NCBI GenBank assembly: GCA_035289425.1
Contig: DATDXC010000038.1
Location: 732 to 64,731 of the forward strand
Origin: Candidatus Nanoarchaeia archaeon
GTDB lineage: Archaea; Nanobdellota; Nanobdellia; Woesearchaeales; DATDXC01
Length of the DNA stretch: 64,000 bases
Reading direction: 5' to 3'
Shown here: positions 2,760-13,421 of the stretch, piece by piece
How positions within the stretch are numbered: the stretch's first letter is position 1
Layout of the letters: each line of letters begins with the position of its first letter
Position numbers and translations under genes: made by a program
The notes under the pieces: model-generated
Seen by the model: the letters and a program-made list of their open reading frames with translations, nothing else
Database searches by the model: none
What the model was told of the DNA's origin: nothing

Positions 2760-4262
2760 TCAACCTATCAGTTTTTTGGGATCTACGTTTTTCGTTACCC
2801 CTTTTACAATGAAGTCATTGTCGAGATAATATTGGGAGAGAATGCTTCCTACCTCATTCAGCTTTCTCAAGTTGTGTTTTACCAGATAGCTCAGAATTGA
2901 TTTTTTTGTTGCAAGATCCTTGTTTATTTCAGCCTGACTTAAACCAGTATGCCTGCTAAGGTCTTCAAATAGCCTGACTGGGGGGGCATGCGGCACCATA
3001 GTGTCATTTGAAGGCTTCCATCGGTATATAATATTCCCTTTACAAGAAACTTTGCCTCCATCTTCAGTAGTGATAAACTCTCCGAGCTGATATACCCGCC
3101 TTATGCCCCTTCTTCGCTCCCGAAACATTACTACGTTTAGATTAACTGCCCCTAAAAGATTTGCAGGAACGTCAATGGGTGGATTAGTGAGCCGCTGAAT
3201 GGTTTCATTTGTGGAATCGGCGTGGATAGTGGCATAGACGCTGTGGCCGGTGTGCATTGCTTCGAAGAGGACCTCTGCTTCTCTTTTTCTCCTGATCTCT
3301 CCTAAGATTATCTTGTCGGGCCTCATTCTCAACGAATTTATGAGCAGATCAAGCATGGTAACTTCTCCCTTGCCTTCTGGATTAGCCTGTCTGGTTGTCA
3401 ATGGACACCAGTATAAAAATTTTGGAAGCTGGAGCTCTCTGGTATCTTCGATGCTTATGATGCGCTGGTTTGGTGGCATGAATGGTGTACACACATTCAA
3501 GAATGATGTCTTTCCTGAACCAGTGCCTCCGCTTATAAGGACATTCATCTCATACTGTATCGCTAACCATATAAGTGCAAATATGTTAATGTCACCGGTC
3601 TTATTATTGATAAAGTCAGTTACCGTCCATGGGTCCCTGGCAAATTTTCTGATGGTAATGGTGTGGCCCTTGTTTGATATGGGATATAAGACTGCATTTG
3701 CCCTGTCTCCGGTAATGAGGTGGGCATCCAGCAATGGGTTAAGGGTCGTTACCTGCCTGCCAACCCTTCGCGCGATCATATTTGCGAAATTTTGAATCCT
3801 ATCTTCTGATTCCATAGTCAGATCGGTGAGGAGCCAGCCATACTTCTTATGATAGACTCGTATAGGTTCTGTCGCTGAGTTTATGATGATCTCTTCGAGC
3901 TCACCATCATTGAGAAGGAATTCCATGGTGCCAAAGCCCAGCATGTCATGCACTAGATGCCCGATGAGGAATTGGGCAGTCGATGGCTTGATGCTCGGTA
4001 CTTTGCTCTTAAAGAGTTCGGCTGCTTTCAGCCTGAATTTTTCCTTGAGACTGTCCATAACTTTAGGATCCAATATCTCCGCAGCACTCACCTTTACTTC
4101 AGTGATGAGGCTGTCCCTGACTGCATTAGTTAATGCTTTGGTAGGTGGAGTTATAGCAGGCACAACTACCTTATACCTCATCTGTTTGTCTTCATCAGCC
4201 TGGATATGCACCTGGGCCTGGACGCCATCAGCTTCTATGTTGTATGTCTCTAGTTCTCGCAT
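2760..4262 (-). CDS. type IV filament assembly ATPase (FlaI/TadA/GspE family, EpdL-like)
   Basis: 500 aa. Walker A GGTGSGKTSFLN, Asp-box RIISIEDTRELQL, Walker B DKIILGEIR, His-box ATIHADS. An N-terminal domain is present. Confidence 0.9.
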   Translation of the reverse strand: MRELETYNIEADGVQAQVHIQADEDKQMRYKVVVPAITPPTKALTNAVRDSLITEVKVSAAEILDPKVMDSLKEKFRLKAAELFKSKVPSIKPSTAQFLIGHLVHDMLGFGTMEFLLNDGELEEIIINSATEPIRVYHKKYGWLLTDLTMESEDRIQNFANMIARRVGRQVTTLNPLLDAHLITGDRANAVLYPISNKGHTITIRKFARDPWTVTDFINNKTGDINIFALIWLAIQYEMNVLISGGTGSGKTSFLNVCTPFMPPNQRIISIEDTRELQLPKFLYWCPLTTRQANPEGKGEVTMLDLLINSLRMRPDKIILGEIRRKREAEVLFEAMHTGHSVYATIHADSTNETIQRLTNPPIDVPANLLGAVNLNVVMFRERRRGIRRVYQLGEFITTEDGGKVSCKGNIIYRWKPSNDTMVPHAPPVRLFEDLSRHTGLSQAEINKDLATKKSILSYLVKHNLRKLNEVGSILSQYYLDNDFIVKGVTKNVDPKKLIG

Positions 4263-5269
4263 TTTCCTATCTCTATTTCCCCGATAATGGGATAATTTAT
4301 TTTGACAAGGTTTTGTTCTTCAAGAATCGATGCCCATTCTTCTATCACTTTCTTATCCACTTCGAAATATTTTGACAAGGCAGAAAGCTTTACATACCCT
4401 TTCTGCTGCACTATTTTACAGAGCACATCTAGTTCGGTCTCGTTACCACTGAGGGGGATCTTCAGCTGCTTTGGCAATTCGTGCAGCGCCACAATCTTTG
4501 GCCTCATAACCTTCTTTGTTTGTTCCTGGGGCATAGGTTTCTGAGTCGTTGACTTTGGTTTTCTTCCCAAACTGGTAAAAGATACAATCATGCCTAAAAT
4601 CGAAACAATGATTGCGATTGCTTGTTTTATGATAACCGAAATTATAAAAACCAGGAGGGATATTATCAACAAAGCAAGCATAACCTGCTTCTTTGTTATA
4701 TGCTTCTTTTCTCTCGTTGTTTCAGATTTTGAGGGTCTGAAGCCAACGAGGGACATCAACGCGACTATACCGAAAAGCACTGCTCCGGTTGTATTTTTAA
4801 TATATAATGAATATCCTAATAGGGCTATAGAGATACAAAGGAGGAAGAGAGAAATTTTCTTTTTTGGTAGTTGTCGTATCTGAGGTTTGTGTGATATAAC
4901 CACTTTTTTATGCTTGAGCCTTCCCAGCAATGTTATAACATACAATAAGGTGCCTGCTCCCATCCCTAACCAGCTCTGGTAAAAAAAGGCAACGCTAAAT
5001 ATGAGTATGGCGGCTAAAGCTATCAAAGCAGTTGGTAACGGGTGGACTTTCTTTTTACGGCGTTTGCTATGGCGGTGGAGCTTGTGCCAAAGGAACAAGC
5101 CATCCAGGATGATTATGCCTAATACCCCATAGATGAGGGTTGTTGTTGATAATGGTATTTCAAAATACCTGATTAGGAATACGGCTGCCGTACCAAGAGC
5201 AAGGACGAGTACCAGCGGGACAATTACTTTTTTCTTGGACTGCGGACTAGTTTTTTTCCCCACCCTCAT
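4250..5269 (-). CDS. polytopic membrane protein with C-terminal winged-helix-like domain (candidate pilus-locus component)
   Basis: Overlaps the start of the ATPase gene by 13 nt (operon). Multiple TM helices separated by K/R-rich loops. C-terminal ~60 aa (ELDVLCKIVQQKGYVKLSALSKYFEVDKKVIEEWASILEEQNLVKINY) look like a wH/HTH fold. Start placed at the internal ATG (MRVGKK...); the upstream in-frame ATG at 5422 is the alternative. Confidence 0.45.
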   Translation of the reverse strand: MRVGKKTSPQSKKKVIVPLVLVLALGTAAVFLIRYFEIPLSTTTLIYGVLGIIILDGLFLWHKLHRHSKRRKKKVHPLPTALIALAAILIFSVAFFYQSWLGMGAGTLLYVITLLGRLKHKKVVISHKPQIRQLPKKKISLFLLCISIALLGYSLYIKNTTGAVLFGIVALMSLVGFRPSKSETTREKKHITKKQVMLALLIISLLVFIISVIIKQAIAIIVSILGMIVSFTSLGRKPKSTTQKPMPQEQTKKVMRPKIVALHELPKQLKIPLSGNETELDVLCKIVQQKGYVKLSALSKYFEVDKKVIEEWASILEEQNLVKINYPIIGEIEIGKCEN

Positions 5270-5603
5270 GCATATACTATGCAGGAGGCATTTTTTAAAG
5301 ATGTGTATTAATCTTTTAATAGTGACTTCTTCAGATGAAAATGGGGGGCCCGTAGAAATCTTCTCGGCTACGCCTTGGTTAGTGTCAGGTTTGGCTTCGA
5401 TGTTTATGGCCATTACCCACATACTGAGAAAATTTCATTTTCTGGTACTTCACTCACTGCGTTCGGAAGTTTCCCTGACGGAGCCTCCCCTTTGTCGGTT
5501 TTACCTCATAATGGAAGAGCCTCACCGATTGACACCAACTTTAGGATTTCTACGGGCCAAAATATGATTAAATTTAAATATGACAGTTTCCCCATTGTAA
5601 AAA
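5270..5603. promoter_or_regulatory. divergent intergenic promoter region of the pilus locus
   Basis: 334-nt non-coding spacer between divergently oriented genes. A TTTAAATA TATA-like box lies ~30 nt upstream of the pilin ATG at 5604. Confidence 0.35.
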
Positions 5604-9800: not shown

Positions 9801-11722
9801 AAAGTTATGTCCCTACTGGTTTACTATTGTCTCCGGTGTTTGATTCAGGAGGATCAGCCACATGGGGCACTATTACCTGGACTGAAAGTGTGCCTCCTGG
9901 AACAGACATAGTCATAGAGATTAGGACAGGCAATAGTGCATCGCCTGATGCAACCTGGGATAATTATGGCTGGGGTGACTCAGTTTATACCTCTTCTGGC
10001 ATTGTAGCCCAAGCACCAGGCAGGTATATCCAATGGAGGGCAAATATGAGCACTACTGACGGTAATGTAACTCCTCTATTGCAGGATGTGAGCATAAGCT
10101 ATTCTGTCGAGCAGACTGGTACCAACAATATAACCTTAACAGGCGCAAACATCTACGATTGCTTCGGAACCTCAGGAGAGCAGGATGATTGGGATTTCAA
10201 GAATGTGCAGCTCGTTGCATGGGAGTGGCCTGTTGACATACAGAAATCCAATCACTTTTTAGCTGGACCAGTGACCTTGGGAGAGAGTTCTCTATCATAT
10301 ACTACTTCATTCAATCCGGGTGTTATGCCTGAATTTATGAAATCTGGTGTGCTTACCTTTGATGCATTGGGTTCTGCTCCAAATTATTATGACTGTGTAT
10401 TCGTCAACAATAATTATATCGGCCGGATGGACGAGCAGAGATACTATGAAGGAAATCTGTGGAATAATGTCAGTTTTGATGTCCCCTTATACGCATTGAA
10501 TGATTCTACTGTCGATATTCGCATCACTTCAGGAACAGTTGATGGATGCCAGCTTACTTCAGGCACTAATGATGGCTGGCAGTTCCAGAATCTGAATTTT
10601 ACACTGCGATGGAGCAATACTACCTATACTTATGACCGGTATATGTCAATGTTGGTTATGAGTGATGGACAGGCAAACACTAAGATAGGCCATCGGAGCA
10701 GCTATGACTCTGCTAATGCCGATAATGAGGCAGTACAAAAAGCCTGCCGGGCCTTTGAGGATTATGGTATCAGGATTTATTCAGTGGCATTTGGCAGCGG
10801 GGCTGAAACTGGAACCATGCAGAGCATTGCATGCTGTGATGACTGCAGCCATGCCTACAACGCAAACAATGCAGAGGAGCTCACCTCGATTTATAGTACG
10901 ATAGCTAATAACATCATTGAGCTCCAGTTTGAGGAACAGGCTGCAAATATAACCGGTAATATAAGTACCATTCTTTATACCGATTCCTATATCTCCTTGG
11001 ACTACACTCCAGAAGGGGTGTCCTCTCAGTATGGGAGGCTGCCTGTCACCTTGGAAAGCGATCCATTTGGAAACAGTATAAGCGCGGCTGATTTTGAGGT
11101 GCCCCCCGGCACTGTAGTGTATGACGCCAAGTTAACTTCCTACTCTGGCCAGCGATGGACTGACCGAGCTGCCATCAAGAATGAAACCACACCTTGGAAT
11201 TATTTCTACAATCTTTCACATTATGGACTCCAATATTCTTTATTAGGAGATCCGTACACACTCAATGTGCCCATTAGTTATGTCAGCTCAGGGAATAACA
11301 GCGTTTATGTTTCTACCGCGCAAGGGCCTGGCAACATTTCAATTGGTTCTCCAGACAATAGAGTGATATATACATTAGGTATCGATCTGCAGATCAATTA
11401 TACGGGCGTGTTCGGCAGCGCTGATGGGTGCTCATGGACAGTAACTTTTGATGATGGGAGCCAAACAACGGTACCTATACCCGAGACCTATACCGGTTCC
11501 AAGACCTGTATCTTCACCAATACATCCAATTGCAATATTGATCATAACACCGATGCGATTGACAATGCTGTCTGTCATCTCTTCTCCCAGCTTGACTTTG
11601 ATGATGATGGCATGCTCTTCGTCAAATTCGGATCTGGAGATATAGGGGTAGAATCGTTCTCCATCGGGAAGATACCGTTCATGTGGGGACCAACTATCTT
11701 TGAGGTGAGGGTGTGGAAATGA
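6863..11722 (+). CDS. giant pilin-anchored adhesin: TadG/PilY1-like protein with split vWA domain, DUF2341-like and LamG/ConA-like domains
   Basis: 1619 aa. N-terminus MVRKG|FFYSLDALIAVMLILAVLVLIPV is prepilin-like (F+1, D+6). The N-terminal half of a vWA domain sits near aa 385-510 (DAVLTTDRTGSM MIDAS motif ... GYTCISCG). A DUF2341-like segment sits near aa 640-740 (KLTFDN...GFPV...DLRF...LPYEIEKW...VWVKVP...YVWMYYGN). A LamG/concanavalin-like jellyroll sits near aa 760-970. The C-terminal half of the vWA domain sits near aa 1265-1360 (SMLVMSDGQAN...GIRIYSVAFGSG...). At least ~35 N-x-S/T sequons and many Cys. Confidence 0.85.
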   Translation: MVRKGFFYSLDALIAVMLILAVLVLIPVFYINKEEATNPVYYSSDIIQLLSTLTLVEINNSDVQTLLNTSNITNYNRSIIEQVLRFQVAGDEYRAQKLLNLTIEGLTPRQFTIGVYIEGYSDPLFVSSNNSVHQLISSKQMISGIEKDRAVEGLTSRVFLSGINEMTSSVYIYFGGYIGEGNITRILQLPSGINDVTSGYLELDASANFTLFLNGEYAGYFGVSATNASNLSADHWDMEASYLLNLHSGANTVELFFNDTSHGYIGGGYIRFTYASTELDLYNDAGESTYWFPGIEGIINVYDSFYVPGTLHGAEIFLHLLSNAPVFLSVGNSTIVEINASASSQQILLNSTYISSLLDFTSLGMRTVPLRLGIRNVSFTLGGKSDAVLTTDRTGSMNACDVEISCSTPGICDSTATCHERRDKVAQSSDRTFINEMLSVEGNTVGLIGYGMRSNPVCSFTYLTDENNTLQQHIDDYYGEWCGYTCISCGIVSAAELLVENKMLHGSNQKTAEDQTEYHVGDSGPVSVTENLDLTVNHSAFVKAQLNVFARSIDTENNYKDCVFFNDHYLGRLCESNDDGSTGWHTCSYPILEEWLPSSGAVSGLWSISSQAEFQQCSLSDIDVNSVPGSAQLNLEGAWMDSDYTKRRKLTFDNSAQSEILEGFPVIISLDNSRVDYSQTQNQGQDLRFTNSAGMLLPYEIEKWNESGISSVWVKVPSIAGSSNADYVWMYYGNPAAADNQSSSVWGDYAAVWHMASNQDSSPNNNDLSCTNCPAATGSSYWYDGSNDRHLVANSNLINTGGPWDNKTIEILFKADTIGSGASKDILYEQGSSTKGLNLYVTGTSLYVGGWNRDSSQSNWDGTWLSAGINTGTWYYAVLGLQDGDNSACADCLKGFLNGQEFSSGDGRRLYSNTGNIQIGFGDTRMHSGTSGEDDYDGFIDELRLTNKALSADWIKAQYLSLTDSFISYGDEEVEAGISQSYVPTGLLLSPVFDSGGSATWGTITWTESVPPGTDIVIEIRTGNSASPDATWDNYGWGDSVYTSSGIVAQAPGRYIQWRANMSTTDGNVTPLLQDVSISYSVEQTGTNNITLTGANIYDCFGTSGEQDDWDFKNVQLVAWEWPVDIQKSNHFLAGPVTLGESSLSYTTSFNPGVMPEFMKSGVLTFDALGSAPNYYDCVFVNNNYIGRMDEQRYYEGNLWNNVSFDVPLYALNDSTVDIRITSGTVDGCQLTSGTNDGWQFQNLNFTLRWSNTTYTYDRYMSMLVMSDGQANTKIGHRSSYDSANADNEAVQKACRAFEDYGIRIYSVAFGSGAETGTMQSIACCDDCSHAYNANNAEELTSIYSTIANNIIELQFEEQAANITGNISTILYTDSYISLDYTPEGVSSQYGRLPVTLESDPFGNSISAADFEVPPGTVVYDAKLTSYSGQRWTDRAAIKNETTPWNYFYNLSHYGLQYSLLGDPYTLNVPISYVSSGNNSVYVSTAQGPGNISIGSPDNRVIYTLGIDLQINYTGVFGSADGCSWTVTFDDGSQTTVPIPETYTGSKTCIFTNTSNCNIDHNTDAIDNAVCHLFSQLDFDDDGMLFVKFGSGDIGVESFSIGKIPFMWGPTIFEVRVWK

Positions 11723-12681
11723 ACAAGAAGGGCATGTACTTCACTATATTGACCATTGGATTCCTGCTTATATTTATCTTTGTTTTCGTCATTCCCGGCT
11801 ACAGCAGGCTTGGTGAGAAGATGGCAGTGACTGAAATGCGAGTTGATTCCATGAATGATTTTATTAAGGATCTGCAGCGCGATCTTGAGCGAGGCTTGTA
11901 CATCTCTTCTTTTCGTTCCATAATGGCCATGGAGCAAAGGGTCATTAACACTGGTACTTTCTTGAATGACAGCGAGCACAGCTTTAAGGAAGCCTTGCTC
12001 AATGGAACAGTTGAAGGCATAAATTCAAGCCTTATGGTCGCATCCAAGTTCACAAGCTGGATTGAGAATGTGCAGTCTGAAGCTTCCAAGCTCAATATTG
12101 AAGCTGGTGTGGAGCTGCATGAGGTAAGGGCGTATCAAATAGAGCCATGGAAAGTTTCGGTATGGGTAAATCTTAGCATCAATGTTTCTGATTCAACCGG
12201 CATTGCCTCATGGGAGAGGGAAGAGATTATTGAAACTCAGGTAAAGATAGCAGAATTTGAAGATCCATTGTATGTGGTGTACAGCTTAGGCCGAATCACT
12301 AATATAATAAATATCACACCCTATGGAGACAATTACACCTACAAACAGGGGGACACCTGGTATGTGGATAACTTCATGGACCATATCAATGATTCCTACT
12401 ACACATTTAACCCGGATGCTCCCAGTTTTCTTATGAGATTTGAAAGCAATCTTTCAGGGTCTTCATGCTGCGGCATTGAAAGTCTGGTTAACCTAAAGGA
12501 GCTGGAAAGCGTTGGCTTTTCAGGTTCAGAAATACATACCCAGAGCAGTCTGGTTGACCATTATTATTGGGTAGGTATGACTAATGGCGAATACCGCATT
12601 AATCTCACCCCCTCCTGGGTTAAGCTTGATGGGGATCATCTAAGCACTTATGATGTTGTCGGACTGTCATATCCTGAGTAG
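11713..12681 (+). CDS. minor pilin-like protein (prepilin-like N-terminus), 322 aa
   Basis: N-terminus ...NKKG|MYFTILTIGFLLIFIFVFV. Overlaps the giant gene by 10 nt. Last gene of the minor-pilin operon. Confidence 0.6.
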   Translation: MEMNKKGMYFTILTIGFLLIFIFVFVIPGYSRLGEKMAVTEMRVDSMNDFIKDLQRDLERGLYISSFRSIMAMEQRVINTGTFLNDSEHSFKEALLNGTVEGINSSLMVASKFTSWIENVQSEASKLNIEAGVELHEVRAYQIEPWKVSVWVNLSINVSDSTGIASWEREEIIETQVKIAEFEDPLYVVYSLGRITNIINITPYGDNYTYKQGDTWYVDNFMDHINDSYYTFNPDAPSFLMRFESNLSGSSCCGIESLVNLKELESVGFSGSEIHTQSSLVDHYYWVGMTNGEYRINLTPSWVKLDGDHLSTYDVVGLSYPE

Positions 12682-12846
12682 GGCTCTGTAGAAAATCTAG
12701 CTATAGCTCGAGTTAGCAGCTTCAAACCTTGGAAGACATAATCGGGAAACTGACATATCCCCGACCGGGACTACTCCCTTGTCAGTTCGTTATTTGATTA
12801 AATTAGGTTTGACCCAAGGCTGCTAACCTACATTTTCTACAGAGCC
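12682..12846. mobile_element. MITE-like element (165 bp) with 15-bp terminal inverted repeats and 9-bp target-site duplication
   Basis: TIRs are GGCTCTGTAGAAAAT (12682-12696) and ATTTTCTACAGAGCC (12832-12846). Extended imperfect arms of 39 and 28 nt share GTTAGCAGC. Flanking direct repeats CCTGAGTAG lie at 12673-12681 and 12847-12855; the left copy contains the TAG stop of the upstream gene. No ORF inside. Confidence 0.55.
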
Positions 12847-12855
12847 CCTGAGTAG

Positions 12856-12953
12856 ACAAAATAGTATACTAGTATATAAAACCAAAAGATTTAAATAGGT
12901 GCTCTGCCAGTGACCATTTACATATAATTCAGTCCATTAAACGAGGTGAAAAA
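12856..12953 (+). promoter_or_regulatory. major pilin promoter/leader region
   Basis: AT-rich with a TATACTAGTATA perfect palindrome (12865-12876) and several TATA-like boxes (TATATAAAA, TTTAAATA, TACATATAAT). GAGGTGA ribosome-binding site 6 nt upstream of the ATG. Confidence 0.4.
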
Positions 12954-13421
12954 ATGGCAAGGAAAGGACAAGCAGCCATGGAATTTTTGATGACCTATGG
13001 TTGGGCTATCTTGGTTGTCTTGGTAGCTATTGGTGCACTGGCATATTTCGGAGTATTGAATCCGGATACATTCTTGCCTGAGAAGTGCGTCATTAGTTCA
13101 GGAAGCGGTCTGTTCTGCGATAAGTTCAGCGTGTCTTCTGGTACCAGTATACAGCTGAAGGTATCCAACTCACTCGCTGAGGCAGTTACGCTAGAAGCAA
13201 GCGGTTCATCAATCTCACAGGGAGCAAATAGTTGCACCTTAGCTGCAGATACTGCAGTTACCGCAGACAACTCTTCAACGCTCACATTCAGCGGTGGAGG
13301 AACCTGTGCAACATTGACTGCAAGTGGCGCTAAAATCAAGGGAGACATCACCCTGGTCTTTACTGATTCAGATGGATTCTCCAAGACCACAACCGGAAGC
13401 TTGGTTGCGAAAGCACCATAA
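12954..13421 (+). CDS. major type IV pilin, class III signal peptide (EppA-type)
   Basis: MARKG|QAAMEFLMTYGWAILVVLVAIGALAYFGV is a textbook archaeal class III signal peptide (KG|Q, E+5, F+6). 155 aa. Ser/Thr/Gly-rich C-terminal domain with N-x-S/T sequons. Own promoter and strong ribosome-binding site; oligo-T tract after the stop. Confidence 0.8.
   Translation: MARKGQAAMEFLMTYGWAILVVLVAIGALAYFGVLNPDTFLPEKCVISSGSGLFCDKFSVSSGTSIQLKVSNSLAEAVTLEASGSSISQGANSCTLAADTAVTADNSSTLTFSGGGTCATLTASGAKIKGDITLVFTDSDGFSKTTTGSLVAKAP

Follow-up and report, generated by a model that had tools for sequence, protein, structure and literature searches.

We analysed a 64,000-nucleotide stretch of the genome of a Candidatus Nanoarchaeia archaeon (Woesearchaeales; GenBank assembly GCA_035289425.1, contig DATDXC010000038.1, positions 732 to 64,731), hereafter called the window, in which a short repeat-bounded element at 12682-12846 lies within an archaeal type IV pilus-like locus. 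On the minus strand, the locus encodes a T2SSE ATPase and two T2SSF proteins. On the plus strand, it carries an operon of pilin-like genes, including those for a Class_IIIsignal protein scoring above the Pfam cutoff, a DUF7266 protein and a 1619-aa DUF2341/LamG/VWA protein, followed by a gene for a 155-aa product. The last gene of the operon (11713-12681, plus strand) encodes a protein of 320-322 aa with the pilin-like N terminus KKGMYFTILTIGFLL, and the 155-aa pilin-like gene beyond the element (12954-13421, plus strand), which is identical in 10 metagenome contigs, starts with the class III signal-like N terminus MARKGQAAMEFLMTYGWAILVV. An earlier annotation made from the letters of the window (the original prediction) had described these surroundings as a pilin locus, reasonably so given the T2SSE, T2SSF, Class_IIIsignal and DUF7266 genes, although its distinction between 'minor' and 'major' pilins is inferential. 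It had also proposed that the element is a miniature inverted-repeat transposable element (MITE) inserted exactly at the stop codon of the upstream gene.

The element is 165 bp long and non-coding, as stop codons interrupt all six frames, and a six-frame check found no open reading frame (ORF) within it. It is bounded by perfect 15-nt terminal inverted repeats (TIRs), GGCTCTGTAGAAAAT on the left (12682-12696) and the perfectly complementary ATTTTCTACAGAGCC on the right (12832-12846; all coordinates of the element refer to the plus strand), which correspond to the A end and the B end, respectively, of the family described below. Directly outside the TIRs are two identical 9-bp repeats, CCTGAGTAG, at 12673-12681 and 12847-12855, the arrangement expected of a target-site duplication (TSD), and the final three bases of the left copy form the TAG stop of the ORF at 11713-12681. 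The inner arms GTTAGCAGC (12712-12720) and GCTGCTAAC (12819-12827) prolong the pairing of the TIRs, and the left arm contains the palindrome AGCTATAGCT at 12699-12708. Each of these features had been read correctly from the sequence by the original prediction. In 40 first-order-Markov simulated windows, perfect 15-nt inverted repeats 30-1500 bp apart occurred on average 0.05 times per window, and the exact abutment of identical 9-mers contributes a further chance factor of ~4e-6. Two more perfect 15-nt inverted repeats are present in the window (22898-22912/23689-23703 and 56962-56976/57513-57527); their arms lie inside coding sequence and have no flanking direct repeats. A search of the window with the TIR pattern, allowing up to three mismatches, returned chance-level matches only, and the element at 12682-12846 is its one bona fide copy, alongside a diverged relative at 5347-5558 that is treated below.

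A protein look-up with the downstream 155-aa product retrieved 10 metagenome contigs encoding an identical protein (L001-L010), and these contigs hold two alleles of the insertion site. The filled site is identical in four independent assemblies, namely the window, L001, L003 and L007. Three independent contigs (L002, L006 and L010) lack the element and read GTCATATCCTGAGTAGACAAAATAG, with a single CCTGAGTAG, which is exactly the empty site that had been predicted. L006 matches the window at 100.000% identity along both flanks of the insertion point, 3862 bp on its left and 2743 bp on its right (6.6 kb in all), indicating a recent insertion that is still polymorphic. The remaining contigs start either exactly at the right TSD copy (L004 and L005) or inside the element (L008 and L009), as assemblers tend to break where filled and empty alleles co-exist or where a sequence is repeated. 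Because the TSD regenerates the stop codon, the upstream product is the same in both alleles, and gene calls give 320 aa with or without the element. Across the 10 contigs, the filled and empty states are each found with both alleles of an A/G single-nucleotide polymorphism (SNP) at 12577, which lies 105 bp from the junction, so that all four combinations exist; this means either that the insertion polymorphism has recombined within the population or that it has multiple origins, as precise excision could provide. Clustered SNP tracts are also seen in L003 (6129-6160 and 11383-11446) and L002 (13720-13849), which together with the SNP at 12577 suggests population recombination or recurrent precise excision.

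The element is one member of a large family. An exact-pattern search with the TIR 19-mer GGCTCTGTAGAAAATNTAG found 53 stretches in species-representative genomes and 90 in metagenome contigs. The genome stretches belong mostly to metagenome-assembled genomes (MAGs) labelled Woesearchaeota, Nanoarchaeota or Nanoarchaeia, commonly with several contigs per MAG and with many matches at contig ends, and many of the metagenome matches come from samples that also hold the window organism's pilin locus (Ga0209541, Ga0209542 and C687J35174). Archaeal loci mostly have paired TIRs 150-170 bp apart. After de-duplication, we counted 42 unique insertions with perfect 9-bp TSDs (39 MITEs and three full-length copies of the insertion sequence, IS, described below), every TSD sequence being different. 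The target signature is AT-rich and symmetric, with AAA at -8 to -6 and TT at -3 to -2 and their mirror image, AA and TTT, beyond the TSD; when the empty sites were reconstructed, only eight of the 42 fell within an open frame of 150 codons or more. The dozens of further copies in DPANN MAGs and metagenomes bear out the prediction that the element would be repeated elsewhere, and two of them, from the same metagenome series as the window organism's contigs, occupy other loci and are at least 95% identical to the window element: an insertion seen in L146 and L097 (TSD TTTCTGATA) and a second one in L120. Apart from the MITE itself, the window has no overlap with the named genomes that were compared. 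The literature searched contained no specific description of this family; Woesearchaeal genomes have been reported as MITE-dense in a MITE-Tracker census (PMC11602168).

Several members depart from the typical form. L146:4982-5146 and L097:1-110 represent a single insertion, the left flank of L146 matching the right flank of L097, and the right flank of L146 stems from another copy, through either an assembly chimera or recombination across the repeat. In L120:8411-8574, the body is ~95% identical to that of the window MITE and the termini AGCTCTGTCCTGAAT and GGTTCTGTCCCGAAT replace GGCTCTGTAGAAAAT, both ends being altered alike, which hints at terminus swapping, arm-to-arm correction or a different mobilising transposase. 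Longer variants of 216-355 bp have the same TIRs and insertions in the body (L054:7594-7948, L040:1194-1493, L022:2069-2322, L049:7029-7282, L027:3090-3328, L019:6978-7200 and L047:81-298), and a 53-bp variant (L082:269-321) consists of little beyond its two TIRs. Typical members are also found in MAGs labelled 'uncultured Methanosarcinales' (L011, L013, L015, L023, L029, L036-L039, L042 and L052), which points either to wrong labels or faulty binning, or to an element shared by DPANN archaea and the methanogens that may be their hosts. Two single-TIR matches (L051 and L055), inspected for an adjacent transposase, have only host genes beside them and are truncated copies. Bacterial 19-mer matches (Paenibacillus, Poribacteria, Leeuwenhoekiella and others) consist of a single TIR with no partner and were taken as chance, and the family model recognises none of the seven 19-mer matches in viral contigs.

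A related full-length IS with the same TIRs, for which the original prediction had advised looking, is present in metagenome contigs; it has the same TSD length and a DDE transposase ORF of the IS5 family. Its copies in L119 (898 bp, TSD GTAGCTATC), L154 (900 bp, CGAGACATG) and L159/L161 (901 bp, TATTTTACG) are all flanked by perfect 9-bp TSDs. The left inverted repeat (IRL), GGCTCTGTAGAAAAT, is the MITE terminus itself, and the right inverted repeat (IRR), GGCTCTGTAGAAAAA, differs from it at one position. The L119 element has a single 279-aa ORF, which matches PF01609 (DDE_Tnp_1) at 33.5 bits with a gathering score of 23; its best NCBIfam model is NF033579 (transpos_IS5_2; E = 4e-34), at 118 bits and thus below the curated cutoff of 140. 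The nearest annotated relatives of the 273-279-aa transposase are haloarchaeal and methanogen proteins called 'IS5 family transposase' (24-28% identity), and the 735 homologues found at E <= 1e-10 lie almost exclusively on contigs of 1-2 kb, the usual result when the copies of a multi-copy IS collapse in assembly. The transposase ORF lacks a stop of its own and continues in frame across the right TIR, where it encodes ...FSTEP (L119:409-1248, L154:3001-3840 and L159:3001-3840). Its stop is supplied by the flanking target DNA, 1-7 codons past the end of the IS, so that the C terminus of the transposase depends on the insertion site. A 302-aa homologue at L157/L158:3001-3909, between radA and an S13/S4/S11/rpoD cluster of an archaeal genome from the same sample series, was set aside as uninformative: with no recognisable TIRs and in a genome of 31.7% GC, it was taken for another organism's relic, and decay or domestication of a former copy may explain it.

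Members of the IS903 subgroup of the IS5 family are 950-1150 bp long, encode a DDE transposase and have 9-bp direct repeats as a hallmark (PMC8431375). The partner IS resembles them in its single DDE_Tnp_1 ORF, its TIRs and its 9-bp TSD, whereas at 898-901 bp it is shorter, and a tblastn search of 72,556 plasmids detected no similarity between its transposase and that of the enterobacterial IS903: only 121 records matched, and the organisms named among the matches listed are archaeal or non-enterobacterial, mostly haloarchaea, with no Enterobacteriaceae. Given its short length and the lack of detectable similarity to IS903, we filed the partner as IS5 family only. The ends of IS903-group elements start with GGC, as do those of the partner.

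Family copies are only 40-80% identical to the window copy, yet they have in common a length of ~164 bp, a side hairpin on one arm and an apical motif. The window element itself folds as a long hairpin on either strand (-67/-71 kcal/mol as RNA, z ~ -6; -34.7 kcal/mol as single-stranded DNA, z -7.6). Its outermost helix is formed by the TIRs, the left one being nearly invariant in 52 distinct family members. Next to it, on the A arm only, lies a sub-terminal side mini-hairpin, CTAGCTATAGCTCGA (12697-12711), with a GC/GC stem around TATA; its two stem pairs co-vary across the family (GC:28 AU:16; CG:32 UA:11 GC:4), and the asymmetry is family-wide. The left strands of helices P2 (GTTAGCAGCT) and P3 (TCAAACCT) at 12712-12729 show strong covariation with their right strands, P3 AGGTTTGA and P2 GCTGCTAAC, which lie at 12805-12827 and are separated by a 5-6-nt bulge. 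The apical module (12748-12787), in which the stem AACTGACA/TGTCAGTT encloses the hairpin TCCCCGACCGGGA and a C-rich 3' bulge, CTACTCCCT, is the most sequence-conserved internal part of the family. The whole amounts to an asymmetric hairpin with a ~55-bp stem, the side mini-hairpin and an apical CTGACA...TCCCC-N-GGGG...CCCCC...TGTCAG motif; the right arm also holds an AT-rich, TATA-like stretch, GATTAAATTAGG.

We built a covariance model from 24 copies with an explicit six-helix structure, to which 59 matches (52 distinct) were aligned. Standard pairs filled 93.9% of the cells, compared to 77% with shuffled and ~40% with slid partners, and the covariation score was 0.42, compared to 0.13 and ~0.05, respectively, figures that are to be read with the alignment being fitted to the model and the sequences being related. 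Both sides had changed in 37 of 47 pairs. The pairing constraint does not favour one strand: with one conserved G.T pair set aside, G.U and A.C were equally rare (32 and 26 of 2292 cells), the mean minimum free energy (MFE) of the two strands was -60.5 and -60.1 kcal/mol (p = 0.51), and of the neighbouring genes that read into the element, 16 did so at the A end and 10 at the B end (p = 0.33), that is, without orientation bias. Rfam gave no match at the gathering score, and only noise with E > 3 at a permissive threshold. Since all of these comparisons were negative, we rejected a strand-specific RNA gene. The strand symmetry would favour a need at the DNA level, such as a hairpin or cruciform in transposition or replication, or arm-to-arm correction.

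A second, older relative of the family appears to lie at 5347-5558 (plus strand). This 212-bp sequence has perfect 14-bp TIRs (GGCCCGTAGAAATC/GATTTCTACGGGCC) and flanks, AAAATGGGG and AAAATATGA, that are identical at 6/9 positions. The family model matches 5346-5559 with 43 bits under default filters and 17 bits with the filters off, and a similar mini-hairpin, P2 arms and an apical motif can be recognised by eye. It occupies the divergent promoter region that separates the two halves of the pilus locus and takes in the beginning of the minus-strand gene 4250-5413 (called start codon at 5413 and first ~22 codons). It ends ~15 bp upstream of a TTTAAATA box that precedes the first pilin-like gene (~5573-5580). 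The same TATA-box-like motif, preceded by a purine-rich stretch, is found at 12890-12897 (plus strand), 44 bp past the end of the 165-bp element, and is a candidate promoter of the 155-aa pilin-like gene that is intact in both alleles. The insertion leaves this box and a GAGGTGA at 12943-12949 unaltered, both being farther downstream, and the core promoter of the pilin gene is therefore probably intact, although any upstream promoter element would be displaced by 174 bp. From the layout of the sequence, the effect on pilin expression would be small, as the core promoter is spared. Insulation or altered read-through between the operon and the pilin gene, as put forward in the original prediction, is conjectural. 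Around the 53 family loci, flanking genes read away from the element more often than into it (62 versus 26, p = 1.6e-4), and flanking pairs are divergent in 17 cases and convergent in two; this promoter-side preference may simply stem from the AT-rich target preference.

We conclude, with a probability of roughly 0.93, that the element at 12682-12846 is a MITE, that is, a 165-bp non-autonomous DNA transposon, which was recently inserted and would be mobilised in trans by the ~900-bp IS5-family IS. It is small and non-coding and has TIRs, a TSD of fixed length, an empty site, multiple copies and an autonomous element with matching termini, which are the attributes by which MITEs are recognised. 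The likely mobiliser is the IS5-family transposase, as judged from the shared 15-bp termini and 9-bp duplications: supplied in trans by the IS, this DDE enzyme would cut the target CCTGAGTAG in a staggered fashion, and gap repair would duplicate the 9 bp. With the stop codon of the upstream gene included in the target, the left copy keeps the stop and neither neighbouring protein is altered. The insertion is recent and still segregating in a groundwater archaeal population, probably a DPANN/Woesearchaeota-like one as judged from the distribution of the family and from archaeal gene content. It is part of a large and old family whose sequences have diverged while its members kept their TIRs, a length of ~164 bp and a single asymmetric fold in the form of a long hairpin. 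Some findings weigh against this conclusion. No transposase was found on the window or placed in its genome; for the closest full-length IS copies the sources are other groundwater metagenomes, whereas the series holding the window organism's contigs has contributed a contig-end fragment only (L152). Moreover, the arms of the MITE are unlike the IS ends past ~19 bp, meaning that the MITE shares termini with the IS and is not a simple deletion derivative of it, and the four combinations at the SNP at 12577 fit either direction of change, insertion or precise excision.

The last point bears on whether the empty alleles could instead be derived, the MITE having been fixed earlier and now being lost by precise excision through hairpin-promoted slippage between the 9-bp repeats. 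Long hairpins between direct repeats are classic substrates of replication-slippage deletion, the element has just this form, and four SNP/state combinations are what recurrent excision or recombination would leave behind. Recombination, for which the clustered SNP tracts of L002 and L003 are evidence, would account just as well for the four gametes, and the sister copies at other loci with at least 95% identity argue for recent transposition; we therefore consider a history of loss possible but rather doubtful. That a native structured regulatory RNA, or a terminator or insulator, of the pilus locus has been mistaken for a mobile element might be suspected from the very stable hairpin, the strong covariation across homologues and the position between operon and pilin gene. 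Such an RNA would not be expected to be absent from otherwise identical alleles, to recur at more than 40 unrelated loci with a different 9-bp TSD at each, to go without any Rfam match, or to show equal rarity of G.U and A.C, equal MFE on both strands and no orientation bias. The empty site and the TSD-flanked copies elsewhere effectively refute it, and with it the scenario of a single block conserved in pilus loci without other copies or an empty site, which the original prediction had named as its own refutation. The chance that the element was spliced into the contig by repeat mis-assembly is similarly negligible. Contigs do break at or inside the element (L004, L005, L008 and L009), and L146 joins the flanks of two different copies; however, four independent assemblies agree on both filled junctions, the TSD is exactly what a true insertion predicts, and breaks at the boundary are such as co-existing filled and empty alleles produce.

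A further alternative accepts the MITE and adds a function: its asymmetric fold would be cargo put to use by the host, for example to regulate or insulate from a position near the promoter, to drive transcription outwards or to stabilise RNA, and the insertion would alter expression of the pilin locus. The fold and apical motif are conserved among copies that are otherwise so dissimilar, insertions of the family are more frequent on the promoter side of genes, each of the two TTTAAATA boxes of this pilus locus has a family member shortly upstream, and the right arm has its TATA-like stretch. On the other hand, a target preference that is AT-rich and symmetric can account for the promoter-side bias, neither strand nor orientation is favoured, and an element that is polymorphic between otherwise identical haplotypes is not required. 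We regard host-exploited cargo as unlikely.

Taken as a MITE, the element can be compared with known classes of short prokaryotic repeats. Like IS-derived or cross-mobilised prokaryotic MITEs, it is small, non-coding, multi-copy and mostly intergenic, with perfect TIRs, a TSD of fixed length and a long hairpin; an autonomous IS matches it in termini and TSD, and metagenome assemblies break at it. It differs from them in that its body is unrelated to the partner IS past ~19 bp, and in that the asymmetric fold of the family, with compensatory change over deep divergence, exceeds the TIR-driven hairpin of many MITEs. ERIC/IRU and Correia/NEMIS elements are intergenic imperfect palindromes of ~100-170 bp whose hairpins are kept by compensatory substitutions and which can affect neighbouring transcripts. 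The present family is likewise a dispersed intergenic imperfect palindrome with compensatory hairpin changes, but it belongs to another domain of life and differs in its termini, TSD length (TA in Correia) and mobilising enzyme, is not known to act on transcripts, and has a strand-symmetric pairing constraint. PATEs of IS200/IS605 elements and REP/RAYT elements, which are also short, hairpin-forming, non-coding and multi-copy in prokaryotic genomes, are not known to have TIRs or to make target-site duplications and depend on an HUH/Y1 transposase; the 15-bp TIRs, the 9-bp TSD and the DDE (PF01609) partner rule out an element of this type. The window element is thus of an ordinary kind, a MITE, which is new as a described family and has an unusually well conserved fold.

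These findings document a currently active transposon system, an IS5-family IS and its MITE, in uncultivated DPANN-type archaea. The presence/absence polymorphism between otherwise identical haplotypes is a clean natural marker for strain tracking and could serve to measure transposition and excision rates in groundwater time series, and the comparison of filled with empty alleles offers a natural experiment on how an archaeal pilin gene is expressed. The conserved asymmetric hairpin makes it testable what constrains the bodies of MITEs beyond their TIRs. In a more speculative reading, to which we give little weight, the family would be a mobile, structurally constrained module whose fold is needed for a hairpin-dependent step of IS5-like transposition or for a host promoter role in DPANN archaea, and the two copies bracketing the pilin-like operon would rewire the expression of a surface appendage. 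If so, the rewired appendage may be one that symbiotic archaea use for contact with their hosts.

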